64,000 nt of DNA from Microthyrium microscopicum (taxonomy: Eukaryota): NCBI GenBank assembly GCA_010405405.1, contig MU004244.1, positions 189,895-253,894 of the forward strand, in the 5' to 3' direction. This document shows positions 20,606-33,131 of this stretch, in pieces (position 1 is the first letter of the stretch; the number at the start of each line of letters is the position of its first letter). The translations under genes and the position numbers were made by a program. Below the pieces are notes generated by a model. It ran no database searches. It was not told the DNA's origin and saw nothing but the letters and a program-made list of their open reading frames with translations.

Positions 20606-23600
20606 ATGGCCAGCGCTCTTCAAAAGCAGTTGGCTGCAATTGCTGCAAAATCTACCCACCAATTGGATCTCAAGGCCCAGCGCGCTGCCCATGGAAAATC
20701 TCTTCTCTTCGATCCAAAGCATGCTGTTACCCAGAACTTCGACTCGTTATACCAGATCTGCCTCGAAGGCTTCTCCGACTTATGCATGCTGGACCCACGG
20801 TTCATACCCTTTTCGAACAATATATTTAGCGAACAAAGCATAGACGAGGAGCGGGAGCAGATGACTGCGACTCAGAATGAGGAACTGAATTCGGTTCTTC
20901 AAGCATTTCTTGGATTGGTTAGCTCTTCTCTGCTACTCAAACCGGGACAGAAAGCCATCGAATGGACGATACGAAGATTTCGAGTCCACGAATACAACAC
21001 CGAGGATCTCATTCTCTGCTTCTTGCCATACCACACCACACATTTGTTTGTCAAACTTCTGTCTATACTGCCACAGAATATACCGCAGACTTGCAAATTC
21101 ATTCAACCGTACATTTCCTCCTTATCGAGCCCTCCTATACGCGCCATATCCTACTCCGCCACAAACACCCCAGCATTCTTCTCCCTCCTTAACCAACACA
21201 TTCTTCGAATTGCCCGAGCAAAGTGTCACTCGAGCGCTCTACTGAGTTTCTGGTCGAGCATCGCCACTCAAGCTGTTGAGGGCATGTTGACTGGGGCACA
21301 ATCAGGAATTGCAACTATCAGAAAAGAACGTACGGAAAATGCTCTGCTCCAGATAATACCAGTTCTCAATGACGCGCTGGCAATTAAGGGGATACCTGAA
21401 CTTGACATTGCAGTATTCATGATCATAATTATTCTAGCGGCTCGGGCTGATATGAATGATGAGACTGTGGACAGCCTGATGGAAGCAGTTACCATGAATT
21501 GGGACAAAACAACTGCCAATCTTCGCTTCATTTGCTTAGCAGCACTAGCACAAGAGAGACATTCAAAGAAGCTTTCCAAGCCTGTCGCAAAACGACTTGT
21601 CGCTGTTGATGGGCTCTTTGATGGCTTGAGTGACATCTCCACAACATACAGAGCCAGTAAGCTGATACAAGGTCTGATGCTGCGATGCATTGATCGTTTG
21701 AAAAAGCCGGGCGGTCAAAAGGAGTTCGGTATAATCCGCAAAGGCTTTGAGAGTAAACTTTTGAGCCAAAAAGAATACCAGAAAGTCCTTCAATCGCTCA
21801 TAACGGTTGTTCTCCTATGGAACTACAAAAATCTTGCGCAACCAGAGGAATTGGACTGGAATGCCCTACAGGACGTGGGGGAATTCTTCAATAGTATCAC
21901 TCTCCCAATTGACTTGTCGGACAGCCAGAAGCAAGATTTACAAAAACTGGAGCTACTCCTACAAGTCTCAATAATACCTGAAGATGTAGAACCTGAGCAA
22001 TCGGCACTTCCAAGCGTGGAACCTGAGCGACCTGCCACACCAATGGAAATCGATTTCGAAGGCACTATTCTGGAATCAGATATCTCTGGCGTTTCATTTC
22101 TCGATGGGCCCCATTCGAGTGGCTTCAATAAAATCGCAAGTCTTTTCGGACAAGCCGCTCGGAATAGCGTCGATCTTCACAGTTTTATTGAGCAAGGTAT
22201 CTTAAGAAAGAATGGGGCACAGACTGGCGACACACGTTACGTTACCTTGCTGGTTCGAATCGCTTGTTCAGAGCGCCCGGTTAGCGTGCGATCCACAGCT
22301 CTCAAACTCCTAGCTGACGAACTCGACGCTCTTTTTACAGCGGAATGGAACTGTCAAGTCATCCTTCCATACCTGATCTCAGGCCTGGCAGACCAATCCG
22401 CGCAGATAAGACGAGGTGCAGCTCAGTGTATTGTCAAGTTCTCCAAACCCACGGACAACCAGCCAAAGGCTCAAATCTGGGGCGATAATAAAATATACTC
22501 TGAAGGAAGTGCGACGAAATTGTCACAAGAACATACGCTGACTCTGGTCAAATCAATTCTATCGCCAAAGCTAGAAGAATGCATTCTGAGCGCCGAAACC
22601 ATTTTCGCCGTATTCACATCATCTTTATCCAGCACAGACTCAAAAAAGACCAATAGTTCTCATTCGGAGCCGCATGCTATCTCCAAGCTTGCACGGGCAG
22701 ATATCTGTGACTTTTTGGCCGGCCACGCCGCTCTTACAGGAATCATGTCCGTGAAATCTCAATTGGTCGTCTTGCTGAACAGCCTTGGCAAAGCGGCATT
22801 GAATGCGCAGTCTACCATCATTCTGCCATTCATCAAACGCTGGAGCACTCTTTCACCAGCGAATGTGGAGTTGGCTTGCAACGGCCAGGGCGTCAAGCTA
22901 GAGACAATAAACCAGCACCTTCTACAGTCAATTACTCATCGCGACGCTGCCAGTTTACAATACCTCGCCGAACTTGTTTTGACTCCCAAAGACCGACAAG
23001 ATCTAATAGCACCAAGCCATGCTCGTCTCATAGAGTTGTGGACGACATTGGATATACATATGCGACAAGCAGTGCTTATTGAATTCACCACAATAAGCCT
23101 GAGACCACGAAACTCCAAGCTCGATAATGCCCCCGAACAGGCTAAGACATCATTGAGAAATCTGCCTCTGACTTCTGATGACCTTGGCTTCTTGTTGTCG
23201 TCTTTACCAAAGGCGACTAATATGCCCGCTGGACCCGCTGCGAAGAGAAGAAGGACTAGTCAGACTCGTTCTTCTAGGCCCGAGCAAGCGCCGAAAGAAA
23301 CGATTGAAGCACTAAGAGGTTACAATCTCGTCCTTGAACTAGTGGACTCTTGTCAGCCAGCACAGCATCCTCAGCTCCTTGGCCCGCTTTTTGAAGTCTT
23401 GAACGAACTTCAGGTGTTTTCTTCGCAAACAAATAATGCTCTCATCTACCTCAAAAGCTCTACTATCAACTCACTCTTTGCCATCGTGGACAAGCTGAAG
23501 AACACGAAGGAGGTGCCGAAGGATAAAACGGCTATTCGAACAGATCTTGTCGTGGACACAATACGGACTACTAGCAACATACAACTTCAGAATGAGGCAC

Positions 23601-26002
23601 TACTTTTAGTGTCTTGTTTGGCGGTTTGGATTCCAGAAGTCGTTCTCCACAGTGTTATGCCTATATTCACACTAATGGGAACGACAATTCTACGTCAAGG
23701 TGATGACTATTCAGCCCATGTTATTGACCAGACAGTTTCACGAGTTGTCCCTCCTCTTGTTGCTTCGCTTAAGAAGCGTAGCCGTGAGGTCGTCAGTGGA
23801 GTTTCTGATTTGCTCGTGAGCTTTACAGCCGCGTTTGAGCATATACCTTCGCACAGACGACTCGTACTCTTCCAGCATGTTGTGGAAGCGTTAGGGCCAA
23901 AAGATTGTCTCTTTGCAGTTGTATGCATGATCCTGAATCAGCACCGATCAGACTTTTCAGCACGACAGTTCGTTATCGATCTAGTCAACCAATTTGATGC
24001 AGAGATCCAATTGGGAATGCTCATACAGAGCGTGGATTTGATTGCGGACATCTTCCGTCCTCGCCGTTCGATGTCAGAAGTTGTTCTTAATATCAAAGAG
24101 AAGAAAGAGATGGTCGATCAGATCACAGCGCAGAATCTGATTGAGGCGCTTTCGGAACTGCTAACAAGCAGTGTTGTGAGATCGAAAATTGCCGAGTCGT
24201 TTGACTTTGGAAGCACCGACTCAGAAGCACAACAAAAGCGATTTACACAATTGATGAGTGGAGCAATCGGCCTCATGCAACTCTTCAAAGGCAAGACGTG
24301 TGAAGGAGCATCGAAAGAACTGCTCTCGAGTGTGTTCAGAGTGCTTCCTGTCAGCGAGCTGATTGGCTGTGCAAAGATGCTATTAAGCACATCCACCGAA
24401 GAAGTTCGCATTATACTCATCCAGTCCGCAAGCTCTCAAGTCAACAGCAGTCGTTTATCGGATCAGAAAGCCGCTACAGCTTTCTTGGAATTCATACCGG
24501 ATCTCAGCCAAGTTATCAGCCAAGCCAAGTCAGTGCAAGAAAAGAGCAGTTCCATATCATGCATCCACCAAATTGCCAAACTATTTGGAAAGCTGGATTC
24601 TTCGCAGGTTCTTTCAGCGGTTTCAGTCATCCTGGGAGACACTTGTATCGGAAGTGGAGAACTATCATTACAGGTTCAGTGTCTCTCTGCTTTGGCATCA
24701 ATGATTAAAGCACTGAAGGAAGACATGTTGCCTCATATCACTTCGATTCTCACCATCACCGACAATCTTCTGCAAAATGATCTCCAATCTGATCAACCTA
24801 GCAGTGAGCTTCATGATATGGCTTTCACAGTCATCAACGCTGTTGGAGATACACTTCCATTCCTCTTGACTGGGCGACAACTTGACAGTGCTATTCATCT
24901 CGCTCAACTTTCCAGCAACAAGCCAACTGATCAACCCACATCAACGCGCGATCATTTCTATCAAATTGTTGCAGAGCGTGTAGACCCTGCGGAAGCATTT
25001 GCGGCGATTGAGCGCAATTTCGAATGGACTCTCAACAACCAAGGTTTCGATGCGATTGTTGATTACTACAAGCTGGTGAAGGGTGCCATATCTGCCCATT
25101 CCAAGTCGAACATCATCAAAAACGCTACTGTGCTACTCAAATTCGTGAAGCAAGCAATGAACATACGGGCTCTCAAAGCTGCTGATGATGATAACTTGAT
25201 TATTTCAGCCACTGAGGCAGAAGATTTAGAGCTACTTATCATTGATGTAGCTTTGAGTTTGGTACTCAAATTGAACGATGCCATATTCAGACCCTTCTTC
25301 ATACAGCTCGTGGATTGGGCTGTCTTCCAACCAACTCAGATGAAGCCAGCTTCCGTGGCGAGAGCAACCACTCTTTTCCACTTCTTGAAGGCACTGCTTT
25401 TCCGACTCAAGGGACTGATGACAGGCTATATGAGCTACGTGCTGGAATTCATTTCGAATCTTCTTCAGTCAGATCTTACAGTAGACGAGCTCAAGCAAGC
25501 TCTACTCGTTGCGATGCTCGGCTCAGCAAGACAGAGTTTCGACTGTGACGAAGACGGTAAGCAAACTCTACAATTGATAAACGGAATAAACTAACATTTT
25601 CCAGAATTCTGGCAATCCCCGTCACACTTTACCGCCATCGCTAAACCCCTCCTCAGCCTCCTTGGTCAGAAACTAGGCGCCATCACAAACGACAGTGTCA
25701 TTCCAGCCATCACTTCCTTTGCGGTTGCCGCTGCATCAAATGACCACCTCAAAGTGCTCAACACCGACATTCTACACATGTTCCGCGCAGAGTCTCCATT
25801 TACGCGGCTGGCAGCGGTCAAGTGTCAACATAGCTTGACGGAAGAGTTGGGTGAAGAATGGCTGGCTCACTTGCCGGAGATGTTACCTTTCATGACTGAG
25901 ATGCTAGAAGATGATGATGAGAAGGTGGAACGGGAGACGCGAAGCTGGATTCGAAGTGTGGAGAAGATTATGGGAGAAAGCTTAGATAATATGCTGCAGT
26001 AA
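20606..26002 (+). CDS. UTP10: U3 snoRNA-associated protein 10 (HEAT repeats, BP28CT); intron at ~25557-25604
   Basis: MASALQKQLAAIA...SLLFDPK, EWTIRRFRVHEYN, VLHSVMPIFT, LKLNDAIFRPFF, C-terminal LPEMLPFMTEMLEDDDEKVE...MGESL. Confidence 0.96.
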
Positions 26003-26138
26003 GCCTTATGAGCTATTGAATCAACCATTAAACATGAATCTTGAGCATAGTGAGCAGTTTGTGTACCAACTTATCCCACTTCTTAATCCGTCTTATTGAT
26101 TTATGCTTAAAAAGCCGTCTTTGATACCTCTCAGTGGG

Positions 26139-26185
26139 CAAAATTAGTGGTACCCTCCCATCGAGTGCGATATCTACCATGGCAC
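26139..26185 (+). repeat. Degenerate third copy of the hairpin-containing repeat (CAAAAT..TCCCATCGAGTGCGAT..CCAT..CAC)
   Basis: TCCCATCGAGTGCGAT at 26156-26171 is identical to the reverse complement of 30036-30051 and 15/16 identical to 29724-29739. Confidence 0.75.
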
Positions 26186-27399
26186 CTTATAATGGGCACA
26201 ACTCCACTTCCCACCACCGCTTGATGCAAATCAATACCCACTACAATCATTTGAAATGTTTCAGCCTCATAAGCTATGCAAGCTGGTAACTAATAGGGAG
26301 ACTAAGGAATGTGAGAAGAAAATTGACACTACGTTAATCTAGGAAGGCTCGAAGCAAAATTAGGGAAAGTGCGGATGCTATGGGAGAAGGTGCGATTTTG
26401 GGTGCTCAAGAGGTCTTGCCTTATGAGACAAATCCAGCTTCCGTTCCAGGAAAGTGCTGCTCCTAGAATGTTAATGCCTAGACTGGAAAGAGCCATCAAG
26501 ATCTTGCCAGAAAATGAAAAGACTCTACCAGGATTATAAAGAGGAGCTGCTTATAAGACTTCCAGTACTTCCGTATCTAGTAATGGCAGAAAAAGTACCA
26601 CGCAAGCAATTTCTACGAGCCACATGCGCATGTAGATTTAAGAACTGTATCTGGTGGAACTGACCTCCCTCTAGAGACCGGCTAGAAGAAAATTCGTTGT
26701 AAAAAAGCACCAGTAGCACATGAACGATAGATTCTAGCAAGAAAGATTTCACTAACTGTCCTCCAAAGTTGAAGAAAACAACAGGCGCTACCCAACCACC
26801 AGTTGGTGCAATCAATCTATAAACTTGGGAGAAGGCTTTTCCAATGATCGCAATCAGAAAACACGAATAAGAAGTTTACTGAATTCCATACTTTACAAAA
26901 GGGACAAGATTGATTTGAGCCCAAAGACGACGGAAACTGAATCATTCACTTAGCATAAATTGTTGCTGACGGTTCAATTATAACGGCAGCGTCAAATGGC
27001 AAATACAAAGCTTTTTGAAAGTTGAACCTGAGTCAAGTACGTGGTGCTTATCTATTTGTTCAAGGTCTGGGCGTGACGGAAGACGGTGACATTGATTGGG
27101 TGGATAAACATCGTCGTGGAGGACCATAACACAGGCTGCGGGGACGCGCGGAGTGCCTTATGTAAAAGGATCAACCGCAACCCGTGGCAAGAAGAGTGGA
27201 GCAGCTTTACGAGTACTGCATTACACGATCTGAAAAACGAGTGAAAAGGTATTGATATGAAACGGGATGGTATTCCGAGAGTTTTCTATAGATTAGTTCA
27301 CTGGTTGTTACTCATTGCGGCATTGAATGGTAGGGATGGCTGATAGAAGAAGTGTTTGTTGTATTACAACGAAACTGCCAATCCTGAACTTTGCTCTTT

Positions 27400-29595
27400 G
27401 AAAAGGTAGGAATAAGAGTCACTATTGGAAGAAAGCTTATTCCGAGCTTTCGAGAGAGAAAACCAAGCATTGGGGATCCCGAGATCGTCATTGGTGATAT
27501 AGCAGCTTCATAAACAGGTGATATAGCAGCTTCATAAACAACGAATGCAAGAACAACCAATACTTGATCAAGGTATCTGAAAATATGGGAATAACAGTAC
27601 TTCAGTCCAATAAGCTTATTTCGAACTATTTAGACTCTAAGATCTAGTATTGGTGATTTTGCAGGGCAGAGCATTGAATTCAGAGTACACGTTGTGGAAG
27701 ACTCTTGCAACCTTGTCTAGAGCAATCCTTTGTTTAAGGAAACTTCTGGAACGGTAGGAATAAGACTTGTTAGGCAGGAAAATCTTATTCCGATCTTTAT
27801 AGGAACTATACTCTAGTGTTGGTGATGGCACAGATCGTAAACAACCCCTAGTTCTATGCGGACTACTCGCCACATGTGTTGCTTACATGCAAGGGACTGG
27901 TCAACTCAAACCTTGATCAATGGTTTCAAAAAGATAGGAATAAGAGTTTATTATCCTCGAAAAGTTTATTTCGGCCTTTTCGCAGTGTTTAGTTAACATA
28001 TAGGAGTTGAGTAAATTTGAAAGTTGAAAAAATGGCCTCCGTACGTATGTATGCGCCTACCCATTGAAATGATCAAGCCTAGATGAATCTTTCTAAAAAT
28101 ATAGGAACAAGCTCTAAATAATGAAGAACTCTTATTCCTATCTTTATAGAAAGACCGTTATCAAGTTAGCATAACTCCTTCAATACTGCTCGGCATTCTT
28201 CAAAAATGTAAGAATAAGCTTGTTGTATCATGCTAAACTTATACCTACTTTTCTATATCGATTGGCCTATGCGTGGTTGAGTTATACTAAAACTGCCAAC
28301 TTTACGCTGCATTGTCTAGAAAGTTAAGAACAAGATTAAATCACTATCAAAAGCTTATTCCTGGCTTTTCAAGTGTGTTCGAAGCTCCATTGCTGAGTTA
28401 CTTATAAACTGCGAACCGTTGCGTGCATTGTTTGGAGAAATAGGGGTAAGTTATCCCTGTCAGGAGGTCATACATGCTCCAAAATTCTGAGTTCCCACCA
28501 TTATATTAGCTAGCCACTCGCATACTGTACTACACCCTTTCAAAAGATAGACATAAGCTTTTCTCCATATGTACAAGAGGCTTATTCCTATCTTTTTGAA
28601 CCGTTACAACCAACCGTTGCGATAATAGTAAAAAATCGTCAATTCTGCGCTGCATTCTTTGAAAACATAGGAATAAGCTCTTCTTTCCAGACGAACCTTA
28701 TTCCTAAATTTTCAAGGCAACCAGACGTTAGATGGATGTGTTATGAAGGTTTGTTACTGAAAAAAGGGGTAAATAGTGGTAAGTGGAATGATCTGAAGCA
28801 TCCACGAATCTACAGTAACCAGATGATCGACTCCTCATCACCTTGTGCTTTTCGGAATAAGCTAATGTGCACGAAAAACGCCTATTCCTATAATTTGCTA
28901 TCTCATAGCCCAGCAACCCTCGAGTTGAAGTATCTCAACAACGAGTAGTCTGATGGCTCTGAAAATATGGGAATAAGCTTTCTTACACAAATCAAGCTAT
29001 TCCTGGAATATCAAAGCCATATCTACATTATAGCTCGAGATACATCAACTCGCCTATTTTCACGTCTTTTCCTCCACAAATATAGGAGCAAGCTTTTTTA
29101 CATGGATAATGCTCATTCCTATACTTTAGAATCGATAGCTCCACCACAACCCTTTATACAATAATTAACTCAATTCAGATCACATAGACTTGAAAATCTA
29201 CGAACAAGCTTCTTCAATTACCCACTGCTTATTCCTGGAATTCTGAACCTGTATGTCTACTGTACCTTGAGATATATAATAACTCGCTCAATTTACCTTA
29301 CCTCACTCCAAAAACGTAGGATTAAGCTTCTCTACTCAAACAATACTTAGTCCTATGTTTTCAGGTCTATAGATACACCAAAGCCTAAGATATAATAACT
29401 CATTTAATCTTTCATATTTTGCTCCCAAAACATACGAATAAGCTTTTCTATTTGAATAATACTTATTCCTATCTTTTGAAATCCGCACGTGTGTCACAGC
29501 TTTAGTTATCATAACTCAATTATTTTGGCTGATATGAATATATAATCATAGGAATAAGCTAATACAAACTAGAATAGCCTACTCCTATATTTGTA
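27400..29595. repeat. Array of 17 degenerate palindromic sites TAGGAATAAG-N19-CTTATTCCTA, period ~116 bp (right part) or ~167-180 bp (left part)
   Basis: Left arms start at 27407, 27586, 27755, 27935, 28102, 28209, 28325, 28441, 28548, 28668, 28852, 28968, 29083, 29199, 29317, 29433, 29549; spacer is 19 nt in 13 of 17 units; most flanked by AAAA/TTTT. Confidence 0.93.
27493..27540 (+). repeat. Perfect 24-bp tandem duplication GGTGATATAGCAGCTTCATAAACA
   Basis: Two identical adjacent copies. Confidence 0.95.
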
Positions 29596-29692
29596 GACTT
29601 CTAGATATACTATAGCCTAAGATATAGCAACTCGCTCGTTTTAGCTACCTTGTTCCCATGTTCTGGGACCCAAATAGCATCCACTCTTCGTA

Positions 29693-30082
29693 GACAAAAT
29701 GAGTGAGCCGTTTCAACACCTACTCCCATCGATTGCGATGGCCGCCATAACACTTGTCAAAGAGTGAATGCTTTACACCCGTTTGCGAAAAGTGATGATC
29801 ACCGATCCTCCTCCCCTGTATCATATCTTTTGCTGGTTTCTACCAATCACAGACTAAATAGCCTTCTTCAAGTTCGGTATCATCGATTTAGCGTCCCAGA
29901 TAACTACTTTGTTAGCTATCTAGGTTGTGATTTTCATGAAAACCAATATACGGGGGGATGTCTTATGTTTACCTCGGATTATCTAATACCATTGGTAATC
30001 AAAGTAGCCGCTCTTGAAGAGGTGTTATGGCGGCCATCGCACTCGATGGGATTGCTCGTCAAAATGGCTCGCTTATTTTGTC
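29693..30082. mobile_element. 390-bp element with ~85-bp imperfect inverted repeats (MITE-like or element-end relic)
   Basis: 29724-29753 and reverse complement of 30022-30051 match at 29/30; similarity extends outward (GACAAAATRAGYGAGCC) and inward (AAGAG..CTTT). Confidence 0.6.
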
Positions 30083-30680
30083 CCTTGAGAGATCCACTAC
30101 AGCTTGCTCCGACCGCATGAAAAAGTAATTGACGTTCTCCCATTAGCTGATGGCTCTTACGAACGCTTCTAATCAGAGGTGTTACATTTTCCATCGCTTT
30201 CAAAATATCCGGGGAAACGCGCCAGCTAGTAAATAAAGCGCTCCATAGCAGAGCGTGTTGTGTGGGATTCATCGAAGTCGATGAGCGCACGCCATTTATT
30301 TTGTCTACCGGATGAGATCCAATAAACAAATCTGCGATATTATCGATAAGACACTTCGCACGTTTCACAAAACAAGATTGCACAATGTTTGGTAGCTCAC
30401 GCAAATATGATTTTTACCCCAGCGTTGAGCGGGTGGGTATCACAAAGTACATATAAAAAACATTCAGCTCTTTCCGAGTTGAGAACGGGCATACAATGAC
30501 CACGCTTTTAATGTTGAAAACTTTTCGCCTTGAACTCCTTCAAAATCAAAAGCCATGAGGTTCTCTCACCATCGCAAGCAGAACCTTTCCCCTATCCTTG
30601 GTATTTTGGGCTGTTGAACAGCAAAAAGCTAAAACGCCGGTGTTGAATGGATCGCCAATGCATTAGTCAAAAATTGTGCT

Positions 30681-33131
30681 CTAAGCCTTCTCCTCCTTTT
30701 GGCGGTAGAACTTGGCCGCATTCACCATGTTGACGAGAGCGGCTTTAGTCTCCGCCCATTGACGAGTTTTGAGACCACAATCGGGGTTGACCCAGAGTTG
30801 ATCTGGTCGGAGGTATCTGATTTTGTTAGTCAAAGAAGTAACATTGGATGGAAATACTAACTGAAGCATTTCTGCGATGCGGTCCTTGATCTCTTGCTCG
30901 CTTGGAACACGAGGAGAGTGAATGTCGTACACACCAGGACCAATGTGACGTGGGTAAGCTTCCTCAACAAAGACCTTGAGGAGCTTAGCATCACTCTTGC
31001 TGTTCTCGATGGAAAGAACATCAGCATCAAGAGCGGCAATGGCATGGAAAAAGTCCTGGAATTCAGAGTAGCAGAAATGGCTGTGGATCTGGGTGGAATC
31101 CTTGACACCAGAGACCGAGAGGCGGAAGGATTCAACAGCCCACTTGAGGTAAGCATCTCTCTCACTTCCCTTGCGAAGTGGGAGACCTTCACGAAGAGCA
31201 GGTTCGTCAACCTGGATGACATAGATGCCAGCTGACTCGAGATCAACGACTTCATCGCGAAGAGCAAGAGCAAGTTGTTGAGCCTGGACAGATTGATGAA
31301 CGTCATCACGAGGGAAAGACCATCTCAAGCAGGTAATTGGTCCAGTGAGCATACCCTTCATTGGCTTCTTGGAGACAGATGCGGCATATTTGGACTCCTT
31401 GACGGTCATCGGGGCAGGACGAGAGATGTCGCCGACAATGATTGGAGGACGAACACATCGAGATCCATAGGACTGGACCCAGGCGTGTGTAGTAAAGACA
31501 TAACCATCCAGACGCTCGCCAAAGTATTGAACCATGTCGTTACGCTCGGGTTCGCCGTGGACGTAAACGTCAAGATCAAGCTCATCTTGAACCTTGATGA
31601 CATCGTCAATTTCCTTCTCGATGAACTTCTCATACTCTTCGGCAGTGATGTCACCCTTGGTGAACTTGTTACGTTGAATACGGATTTCCTTGGTTTGTGG
31701 GAAAGATCCGATGGTGGTGGTAGGGAAGAGTGGGAGCTTGAGATGTTCTTTTTGAGCAGCATATCTAGCTGGGAACTCGGATTGACGATTGTGCTGTTCT
31801 GGGGTAACCTTTGCTTGACGGTCCTTCACAGCAGCGTTGTTGGTTCGCTTAGACTCGGCACGGGACTTCATCGAAGCAGCGTTGGCCTCGAGTAGATCCT
31901 TGACGGCAGCTGGTCCTTCAGTGATAGCCTTGGCAATAACAGCAACTTCAGAAGCTTTTTGAACAGCGAAAGAGAACCAGTCTTTGACTTCAGAGTCGAG
32001 CTTCTTCTCGCTTTCGAGAGTGTGAGGTACATGGAGTAAAGAACTGGAAGTGGCAACGATAACACGGTCCTTTCCAAGCTTCTGGATGGCAGTCTCGACA
32101 GTCTCAATGGCGCGCTTGAAGTTGGTCTTCCAGATATTTCGACCATCAACGACACCAGCAGAAAGAACTTGGTTGGATCCGAGTTGACCGAGAACACCCT
32201 CTAGCTGCTCTGGGTTACGGACAAGGTCGACGTGGATACCGTGAACATTCTTAAGTGCTGGGAAGACGTCAAAGTTGTGAACGATGTCGCCGAAATATGT
32301 TGCCAAAACCAAGTTTGGGATGCTGCTGCCAGATAGTGCTTCATAGGCAGGCTTGAACGCATCCTTGACCTCTTGGGGAAGATCAAAGACCAAGATTGGC
32401 TCGTCGATTTGAACAGTCTCAGCTCCAGCTTGCTTGAGCTTCTCGAGAAGCTCCTTGTAGACAGGGAGAAGCTTTTGAATGAGAGAGATTGGCTTCACGG
32501 ATTGATCACGATCAGCTTTTCCGAGGAAGAGGAAGGAGACGGGACCAAGGACAACTGGTCGAGTTGTAATACCAGCCTCTTTGGCCTCGAGGAATTCGCG
32601 GACGGGTTTGGGGTCGGCAGAGAGCTTAAATGATTGTCCATCTTGGAATGTTGGCTTGACATAGTGGTAGTTAGAGTCGAACCACTTGACCATTTCCTAA
32701 AAGACATTAGTCCATGTTCGAAGACAGCTGAAAACGAATTCTCGTACCAGACTTGGAACATCGATGCCATCCTTTTGGTGACCACGGCCCATTGCAAAGT
32801 ACTCGTCAATGGGGTCAAGGCCATGCTTAGAATACCGTTCTGGAATAGCCTTTGAATACAAGTTAGCATTGAGGCTTGTATGATACGAAAGAGTTCATAC
32901 ATTGAATAGTTGAATGTGATCAAGGACTTGGTCGTAGAAGGCAAAGTCATTGCTGGGAATGCTGTCAACACCAGCATCCTTTTGAATTTTCCAATGAGCA
33001 AGACGAAGACGCTTTCCCTCGGAGAGTAAATCTTCGCGAGAGAGTTTACCGCCCCAGTAAGCTTCAGTTGCTTTCTTGAGGTCGCGAAGGACGCCCATAC
33101 GAGGGAAACCGAGAACTGATGATTGAACCAT
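30681..33131 (-). CDS. MET6: Cobalamin-independent methionine synthase (three introns)
   Basis: MVQSSVLGFPRMG, MVKWFDSNYHYV, TTTIGSFPQT, HGEPERNDMVQYF, HFCYSEF, WVNPDCGLKTR. Confidence 0.98.

Follow-up and report, generated by a model that had tools for sequence, protein, structure and literature searches.

A single-copy array of conserved inverted half-sites in a diverged tandem repeat between UTP10 and MET6 of Microthyrium microscopicum

We analyzed 64,000 nt of contig MU004244.1 from Microthyrium microscopicum, which is a filamentous Dothideomycete (an ascomycete) and not a yeast. We will call this stretch the window, and all positions are window coordinates. Between two convergent genes, UTP10 (on the + strand) and MET6 (on the - strand), the window contains an array of 17 head-to-tail units (27377..29664, + strand). 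These are directional units of a diverged tandem repeat, and most of them are 116 bp long. Each unit contains a box, TAGGAATAAG-N-CTTATTCCTA, which is made of two inverted 10-bp half-sites (the arms) and a spacer that is usually 19 nt. The arms have changed about five times more slowly than the rest of the unit. We tentatively propose, with a probability of roughly 40%, that a putative sequence-specific DNA-binding protein recognizes these bipartite, inverted half-sites, that the array is phased, and that purifying selection maintains it.

An earlier note, which was made from the sequence alone, had counted 17 palindromic sites. The count is correct if a half-decayed copy is included with the 16 recognizable ones. 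We scanned the 64 kb for pairs of arms, tolerating as many as 3 mismatches in each arm and a spacer of 14-28 nt. This fuzzy scan gave 22 rows. Fifteen of these are at 27407-29587, with at most 4 mismatches each in total, and the other 7 rows (6 sites) are outside the array and all have 5-6 mismatches. With the units at 27935 and 28441 added to these 15 pairs, there are 17 units. Arms with no more than one mismatch are also concentrated in the array region, which holds 11 of the 12 such left arms in the 64 kb and all 12 of the right arms. The exact pattern, TAGGAATAAG-N15..26-CTTATTCCTA, occurs once in the window (28668-28706) and not at all in 100 shuffled sequences.

The spacer is 19 nt in 13 of the 17 units, as the note had reported. 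We number the units from left to right. The boxes with 19-nt spacers are u1 (27407..27445, with the right arm CTTATTCCGA), u2 (27586..27624, with 2+2 mismatches), u3 (27755..27793), u5 (28102..28140), u6 (28209..28247), u7 (28325..28363), u10 (28668..28706, the sole perfect copy), u11 (28852..28890), u13 (29083..29121), u14 (29199..29237), u15 (29317..29355), u16 (29433..29471), and u17 (29549..29587). The spacer is 18 nt in u12 (28968..29005), 20 nt in u4 (27935..27974, which has a decayed right arm, TTTATTTCGG), and 23 nt in u9 (28548..28590). The half-decayed copy is u8 (28441..28480): it retains the left arm, TAGGGGTAAG, and has lost the right arm. Its spacer is about 20 nt, and the unit profile missed this unit.

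From u1 to u17, the start-to-start distances are 179, 169, 180, 167, 107, 116, 116, 107, 120, 184, 116, 115, 116, 118, 116, and 116 bp. Half of these 16 intervals are 115-118 bp; the rest are 107 bp (twice), 120 bp, or 167-184 bp (five times), and a long unit corresponds to about 1.5 periods of 116 bp. Of the 16 linkers, which we measured from a right arm to the left arm that follows, 8 are exactly 77 nt long. Two bases outward from each half-site there is a run of A or T. When we built a profile from 16 units, all 16 scored higher on the + strand (39-59 bits) than on the - strand (11.5-43 bits), and no further copies were found in the window (the best hits outside the array had E values of 2.2-9.6). 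So the unit has a polarity, while the box inside it does not. The earlier description of palindromic sites with fixed spacers was right about the sites, and needs to be amended in that the sites are parts of a diverged tandem repeat whose linkers have a direction. The divergence of the units is such that Tandem Repeats Finder (TRF) gave no hit for the array, whatever the score.

We considered two other arrangements and rejected both. The 116-bp unit is not a palindrome as a whole, as complementarity is limited to 10-29 nt from the axis. Nor are the spacers and linkers of the left units inverted relative to those of the right units: the forward and reverse scores are alike, the profile prefers the + strand throughout, and a left linker is not the reverse complement of a right one.

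The note had argued for constraint on the arms and on the geometry, and had proposed a unit alignment as the check. In this alignment, the arms are clearly more conserved than either the spacers or the linkers. The average pairwise identity is 0.82 and 0.79 for the two arms. For the 19-nt spacers it is 0.388, as compared to 0.265 in an out-of-register control, and for the 77-nt linkers, in gapless register, it is 0.427, as compared to 0.268 (standard deviation 0.014) in shifted registers. Similarly, among the 13 units with 19-nt spacers, the majority base in a column has a frequency of 0.90 and 0.91 in the arms, 0.56 in the spacer, and 0.48-0.54 in the linker. The ten flanking bases, which include the A and T runs, are intermediate (0.66-0.67), so the runs that the note had drawn at both ends of each site are real. 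The Jukes-Cantor estimate is 0.22 substitutions per site for the arms and 1.08 elsewhere, which is the five-fold difference mentioned above. Also, the ratio of transitions to transversions is 1.57 in the arms and 0.54-0.62 in the rest of the unit. The sequence outside the arms is near substitution saturation.

One part of the earlier description does not survive: the spacers do not vary freely. They are 39% identical in register and 27% identical in the control. The spacer is still homologous between units, and it decays like the linker. What stands is the uneven decay, and because the decay is uneven, we believe that the arms and the geometry are under constraint.

At about one substitution per site, the geometry of the unit has persisted, and its net length has hardly changed. 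Insertions and deletions usually occur at roughly 0.05-0.1 times the rate of substitutions. At an ordinary ratio, several of them would be expected per linker by now, so the fixed 77 nt of the linker is arguably at least as remarkable as the fixed 19 nt of the spacer.

These measurements also bear on whether the array might be a neutral minisatellite whose arms only appear to be conserved, whether through a mutational bias (such as repeat-induced point mutation, or RIP, that spares the arms), through ascertainment, or through gene conversion that is limited to the arms. The consensus of the arms lacks both CpA and TpG, which are the preferred context for RIP; the units were located via their arms; and the GC content is lowered at the array. 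All of this would fit. But the divergence outside the arms is mostly by transversion (the ratios of 0.54-0.62 given above), and linker columns with a majority of A or T are poorly conserved too (0.64). One substitution per site should have scrambled the lengths, yet 8 of 16 linkers have exactly the same length. Furthermore, arms of 10-20 bp are too short for ordinary homologous conversion. In a minisatellite or other variable-number tandem repeat, the units are homogenized and decay is even along the unit; here, the linkers are just 43% identical, and the arms lag far behind them. We consider neutrality to be very unlikely. RIP itself can be rejected, given a TpA/ApT ratio of 1.01, a (CpA+TpG)/(ApC+GpT) ratio of 1.15 (judged against the usual thresholds for these indices), and the excess of transversions.

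Is it the sequence of the arms that is conserved, or their ability to pair? Across the 10 bp of the core, the two arms of the same unit pair at 127 of 160 positions (0.79), and arms taken from different units pair just as often (0.79, P = 0.55). This implies that each arm follows the consensus and not its partner. There is no bias towards wobble pairs, as we counted 26 G:T and 31 A:C mismatches, taking either strand. A double change at a paired core position is seen in just 1 of the 160 cells (A-T to T-G at pair 36-68 in u15). Conservation is mainly of sequence, in two inverted half-sites that are a fixed distance apart, and not of a helix.

Nevertheless, the note had suggested a precursor of many RNA hairpins as another explanation, and some results fit with it. 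In this scenario, the array would be transcribed, possibly in some life stage only, into a long RNA or a small-RNA precursor, and each unit would fold into a stem of about 20 bp that is closed by a loop of 19 nt, to be bound or diced. High conservation of the arms with low conservation of the loop and the flanks resembles what is seen in tandemly duplicated hairpin precursors. When we folded 16 units as RNA, the central hairpin was part of the minimum-energy structure in 12, and z scores of -2 or below were obtained for 7 of the 16. The best of these is u10 (-5.78), and they include u9 (-5.03), u5 (-4.59, with complementarity that reaches 24 nt per arm), and u12 (-3.89). The two NN positions adjacent to the core pair more often within units than in shuffled pairings (0.53 vs. 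0.34, P = 0.01; 0.42 in a neighbor control), and so, slightly, do positions 11-20 outward (0.34 vs. 0.29, P = 0.047). The covariation score for the 31-pair hairpin is 0.218, as compared to 0.162 when shuffled (0 of 500 shuffles reached it) and at most 0.134 with slid partners, although related sequences may exceed all of the shuffles without any structure.

Against a hairpin precursor, the core shows no signal of preserved pairing and no G:U bias, so that compensatory change, by which a cluster of hairpins would be recognized, is hinted at only weakly and only at the NN positions. The other 9 of 16 units have z scores above -2, that is, they fold no better than shuffled sequences, and the hairpin is absent from the minimum-energy structure of 4 units. 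Hairpin precursors would not be expected to have linkers of a fixed 77 nt. The covariance models of Rfam 15 had no match at E ≤ 1 over 25000-31000, and ARAGORN found no transfer RNAs in the window. Inspecting the linkers by eye, we saw no consistent boxes of a C/D-box small nucleolar RNA, an RNA polymerase III gene, a hammerhead, or a B-box. Overall, a hairpin precursor has little support, and we think it is unlikely.

Among the explanations that the note had offered, sites for a dimeric protein fit best, because neither arm depends on its partner in keeping to the consensus. The array is an old, single-locus series of head-to-tail units of about 116 bp whose only strongly conserved parts are the two inverted 10-bp half-sites. 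As we envision it, each box would dock a protein that touches two half-sites about 29 bp apart, either as a dimer or as a two-domain protein, and the array would be a platform for loading at multiple sites, with a constrained unit length. We infer that a protein is the selecting agent. The array would act in cis on the chromosome, whether as a kinetochore-like or partition-like platform, as a barrier to forks or to transcription between the convergent genes, or as a chromatin boundary. Binding by such a protein would explain the independent conservation of the arms, the fixed 19-bp distance, and the presence of a polarity-free box in a polar unit. It would also explain why the same box geometry is found at other loci (see below).

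Several observations weigh against this proposal. Selection is inferred from one array only, and the arms' conservation is somewhat inflated by our use of the arms to locate the units. A distance of 29 bp between the centers of the half-sites is unusually wide for a simple dimer. Because five units are 167-184 bp long and two are 107 bp, strict helical phasing fails across the array, and there is no 10.5-bp helical periodicity of AA/TT in it (z = -0.1). The length of the five long units, at about 1.5 periods, is left without an explanation. And binding of a protein predicts neither the pairing at the NN positions nor the excess covariation.

As to which protein might bind, the dimer sites of Zn2Cys6-type regulators are inverted CGG/CCG half-sites with a fixed spacer. 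The arm consensus does not contain CGG, and CCG or TCG is present only in the right arms of u1-u4. The half-site does resemble what we take to be the sites of TEA/Tec1 (CATTCY) and of Ste12-like proteins (TGAAACA), with one base off in most units; we mention this as a lead only.

The units fall into two subfamilies, one at 27400-28100 (u1-u4, the left units) and the other at 28100-29600 (the right units). The left units have linkers of 127-141 nt with a common TTGGTGAT..GCAG block, AGT after the left arm, and right arms that end in CCGA or TCGA. In the right units, the left arm is followed by CTT, and the linkers are 77 nt long and contain an ATAATAACTC block. The linker after u1 also contains a perfect 24-bp tandem duplication (27493-27540), which shows that changes of length do happen in the units with long linkers.

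To see how often the array occurs, we relied on a DNA run that is probably the source of the assembly and presumably represents the same genome as the window. A single contig from this run spans 24000-29731 without differences, at a depth of 802.6, which corresponds to a single copy. No other contig in the run is 80% or more alike along the array, so there are not several near-identical copies of the whole. At least three other contigs, at single-copy depth as well (838-885), match the arm and flank of one unit, followed by the opposite arm of a different unit. Only arm pieces match, and the shorter side of the joint is 20-23 nt. In two of these contigs the matched and intervening letters add up to a 19-nt spacer; one runs on into a conserved linker block. 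The 10 intervening letters of one such contig are not present in the window. Thus, related units with 19-nt spacers are present at other loci of the same DNA sample. Two further runs (X6 and X7) contain low-depth pieces that are identical to the window, and we took these to be from the same organism and not from an independent relative. A scan of metagenomes with TAGGAATAAG-N19-CTTATTCC found 17 loci, each with one arm pair and none with an array, and hence no relatives.

The right end of the array is about 20-30 bp from an element at 29685-30082 that resembles a miniature inverted-repeat transposable element (MITE). Its inverted ends (29693-29774 and 30001-30082) are 82 nt long and 77% complementary, with 226 nt between them. 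In the DNA run, the summed contig depth at the positions listed within its left end (29715-29743) is about 25,000-51,000, as compared to about 800 for a single copy, and pieces of it are found in RNA contigs too. A second short dispersed repeat, at 30229-30315, matches up to 28 contigs at one position, with a summed depth of up to about 47,000, and adjoins the downstream side of the 3' untranslated region of MET6. On the other side, 1.2 kb to the left of the array, a 35-bp fragment of a MITE end (26155-26190) is direct relative to 29723-29753 and inverted relative to 30020-51. This fragment corresponds to the inner part of the MITE end and lacks the outer end. At other loci, such a piece is present twice, 13 nt apart.

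This setting raises the question of whether the array is the relic of a satellite-like array that was carried by a transposon, whose boxes were once bound by a transposase or another protein of the element, and which is now immobile in a landing zone for transposons. The close neighborhood of these repeats is consistent with a relic, and so are the box-bearing units at other places in the same DNA sample. Short satellite-like arrays in euchromatin may be carried by non-autonomous Helentrons or MITEs, and those on Helentrons are described in oyster (PMC7492417). Our array is likewise short, in gene-rich DNA, and beside a MITE-like repeat, with related units elsewhere; it differs in being single-copy, in having units far more diverged than those of a mobile array would be, and in being seemingly not bracketed by the ends of an element.

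The copy number and the apparent lack of brackets argue against a relic: no contig from elsewhere is 80% or more alike along the array, and the MITE fragment on the left is distant and incomplete. The note had raised linkage to a recombinase or transposase as support for a mobile system, and no such gene was found with Pfam among the 18 additional open reading frames (ORFs) that we scanned over the window, nor among 4 others. (The 18 are housekeeping genes or lack a Pfam family.) Finally, divergence that is near saturation, together with intact geometry, implies a lasting constraint, which a dead element would not keep. We view a transposon relic as somewhat unlikely.

A more specific idea is that the array serves a small centromere as its sequence-defined core, and that 116-bp monomers with a split-palindrome box recruit a putative kinetochore-associated DNA-binding protein. 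It would then be a fungal counterpart of the satellites with CENP-B boxes, with related arrays on other chromosomes. We consider both the centromere itself and this counterpart role to be quite unlikely. The gap between the convergent genes is compatible with a centromere, as it is 4.4 kb, gene-free, and the region of lowest GC, and so are the related units elsewhere in the DNA sample. We know of no satellite centromere in filamentous ascomycetes. In Zymoseptoria tritici, the centromeres that were mapped by chromatin immunoprecipitation (ChIP) lie in DNA that contains genes and is not repetitive throughout, and they lack a consensus motif (PMC4589918). Our literature search found no ChIP-mapped centromeres from other Dothideomycetes.

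The CENP-B box is found in human alpha satellite and in the 120-bp minor satellite of mouse. As in our array, the monomers of these satellites have a fixed length, and a single short box has been retained in a monomer that otherwise drifts; in size, the unit of the mouse minor satellite is also close to 116 bp. The array has the traits of a box-bearing satellite in its regular spacing (8 of 16 intervals at 115-118 bp) and in its conserved arms (identities of 0.79-0.82, as compared to 0.39-0.43 elsewhere). It differs in that its 17 units are at a single-copy locus, are about 43% identical, and are not homogenized; in that its box is a split palindrome (10+19+10); and in that its host is a filamentous ascomycete. 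Satellites form long, homogenized, multi-copy arrays, whereas this one has 17 units at single-copy depth and is invisible to TRF.

Other systems share some of these features. The family of repeats in oriP of Epstein-Barr virus (bound by EBNA1) and sopC of the F plasmid (bound by SopB) are arrays of palindromic dimer sites that load maintenance or partition proteins. Like our array, they have tandem units with one inverted-repeat site each, and they function by loading many copies of a protein. Their units are 30-43 bp, nearly identical, and episomal, with short spacers, while ours are 116 bp, highly diverged, and chromosomal. In the nematode Meloidogyne, tandem repeats that are bound by CenH3 have divergent monomers that share one strictly conserved 19-bp box, which is the same combination as in our array. 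Those are holocentromeres with many arrays and with ChIP evidence, and the abstract of PMC8097292 does not describe the box as a split palindrome. Some centromere satellites with non-B-form DNA have dyad symmetry in every monomer, as does our array. As reported in PMC5889037, those dyads are shorter than 10 bp and at known centromeres; in our array, it is not the pairing itself that is conserved.

So there are precedents for tandem units in which one box persists and the remainder drifts. The split palindrome described here (10+19+10), in a filamentous ascomycete and in a 116-bp unit that is near saturation and locked in length, had no match in Rfam, in the metagenome scan, or in the literature. 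Our literature search (subscription journals were outside of it) found no description of such an element, and a search on satellite DNA had no Pezizomycotina among the matches listed. The papers listed for M. microscopicum deal with taxonomy or survey genes.

Filamentous ascomycetes are not known to have chromosomal cis-elements that are defined by sequence and made of satellite-like units. The array amounts to a natural mutagenesis experiment, in which everything except two inverted 10-bp motifs and the geometry of the unit was free to mutate to near randomness. The pattern of decay points to a specific putative DNA-binding factor and, with 10+19+10 in a unit of 116 bp, to a rule for the spacing. 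Identification of this factor could show the locus to be a novel type of centromere, barrier, or boundary element in fungi. Were the array transposon-borne, it would document, in fungi, how a transposon gives rise to a satellite-like array. Either way, the locus is a short, clonable, and testable site.

The gap between the two genes is the GC minimum of the window (0.37-0.41, as compared to about 0.45-0.52 in the rest). It contains no ORF starting with ATG of more than 97 amino acids, and the array contains none of more than 70, so the note's description of an AT-rich region with no credible ORF is accurate. The GC skew flips over the array, from +0.17 at 27-28 kb through -0.06 at 28-29 kb to -0.26 at 29-30 kb.

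The identity of the neighboring genes and their convergence, which the note had also proposed, are confirmed by matches to Pfam and by spliced RNA contigs. UTP10 (20606..26002, + strand) contains the U3snoRNP10 and BP28CT families of Pfam. It has a 48-nt intron at 25556-25603, and it stops at 26002, at the end of the ORF of its last exon, so that its 3' end is towards the array. MET6 (30681..33000, - strand) encodes a cobalamin-independent methionine synthase with Meth_synt_1 and Meth_synt_2; its stop is at 30681, and its 3' end is towards the array as well. In an RNA-type run (X5), spliced contigs cover UTP10 to 25994 and MET6 from 30392. The contigs of this run are absent over 26517-29700, and such a blank says nothing about expression. 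On the left side of the gap, which is otherwise uncovered, the same run has a 201-nt contig with a depth of 2.9 (26316-26516); it may come from a rare transcript or from carried-over DNA.

MET6 is 98% identical to a protein from Microthyrium microscopicum; the next-best matches, at 90% identity or below, are metagenome proteins and proteins from other Dothideomycetes. Within MET6, the RNA contig skips 45 nt (30817-30861). The skipped segment is CT..AC on the + strand, which is a GT..AG intron on the - strand, and it is in frame and free of stops, so a naive ORF reads through it. This read-through may contribute to the identity with the database protein being 98% and not 100%. Further introns of MET6 are at 32696-32746 and 32849-32899.

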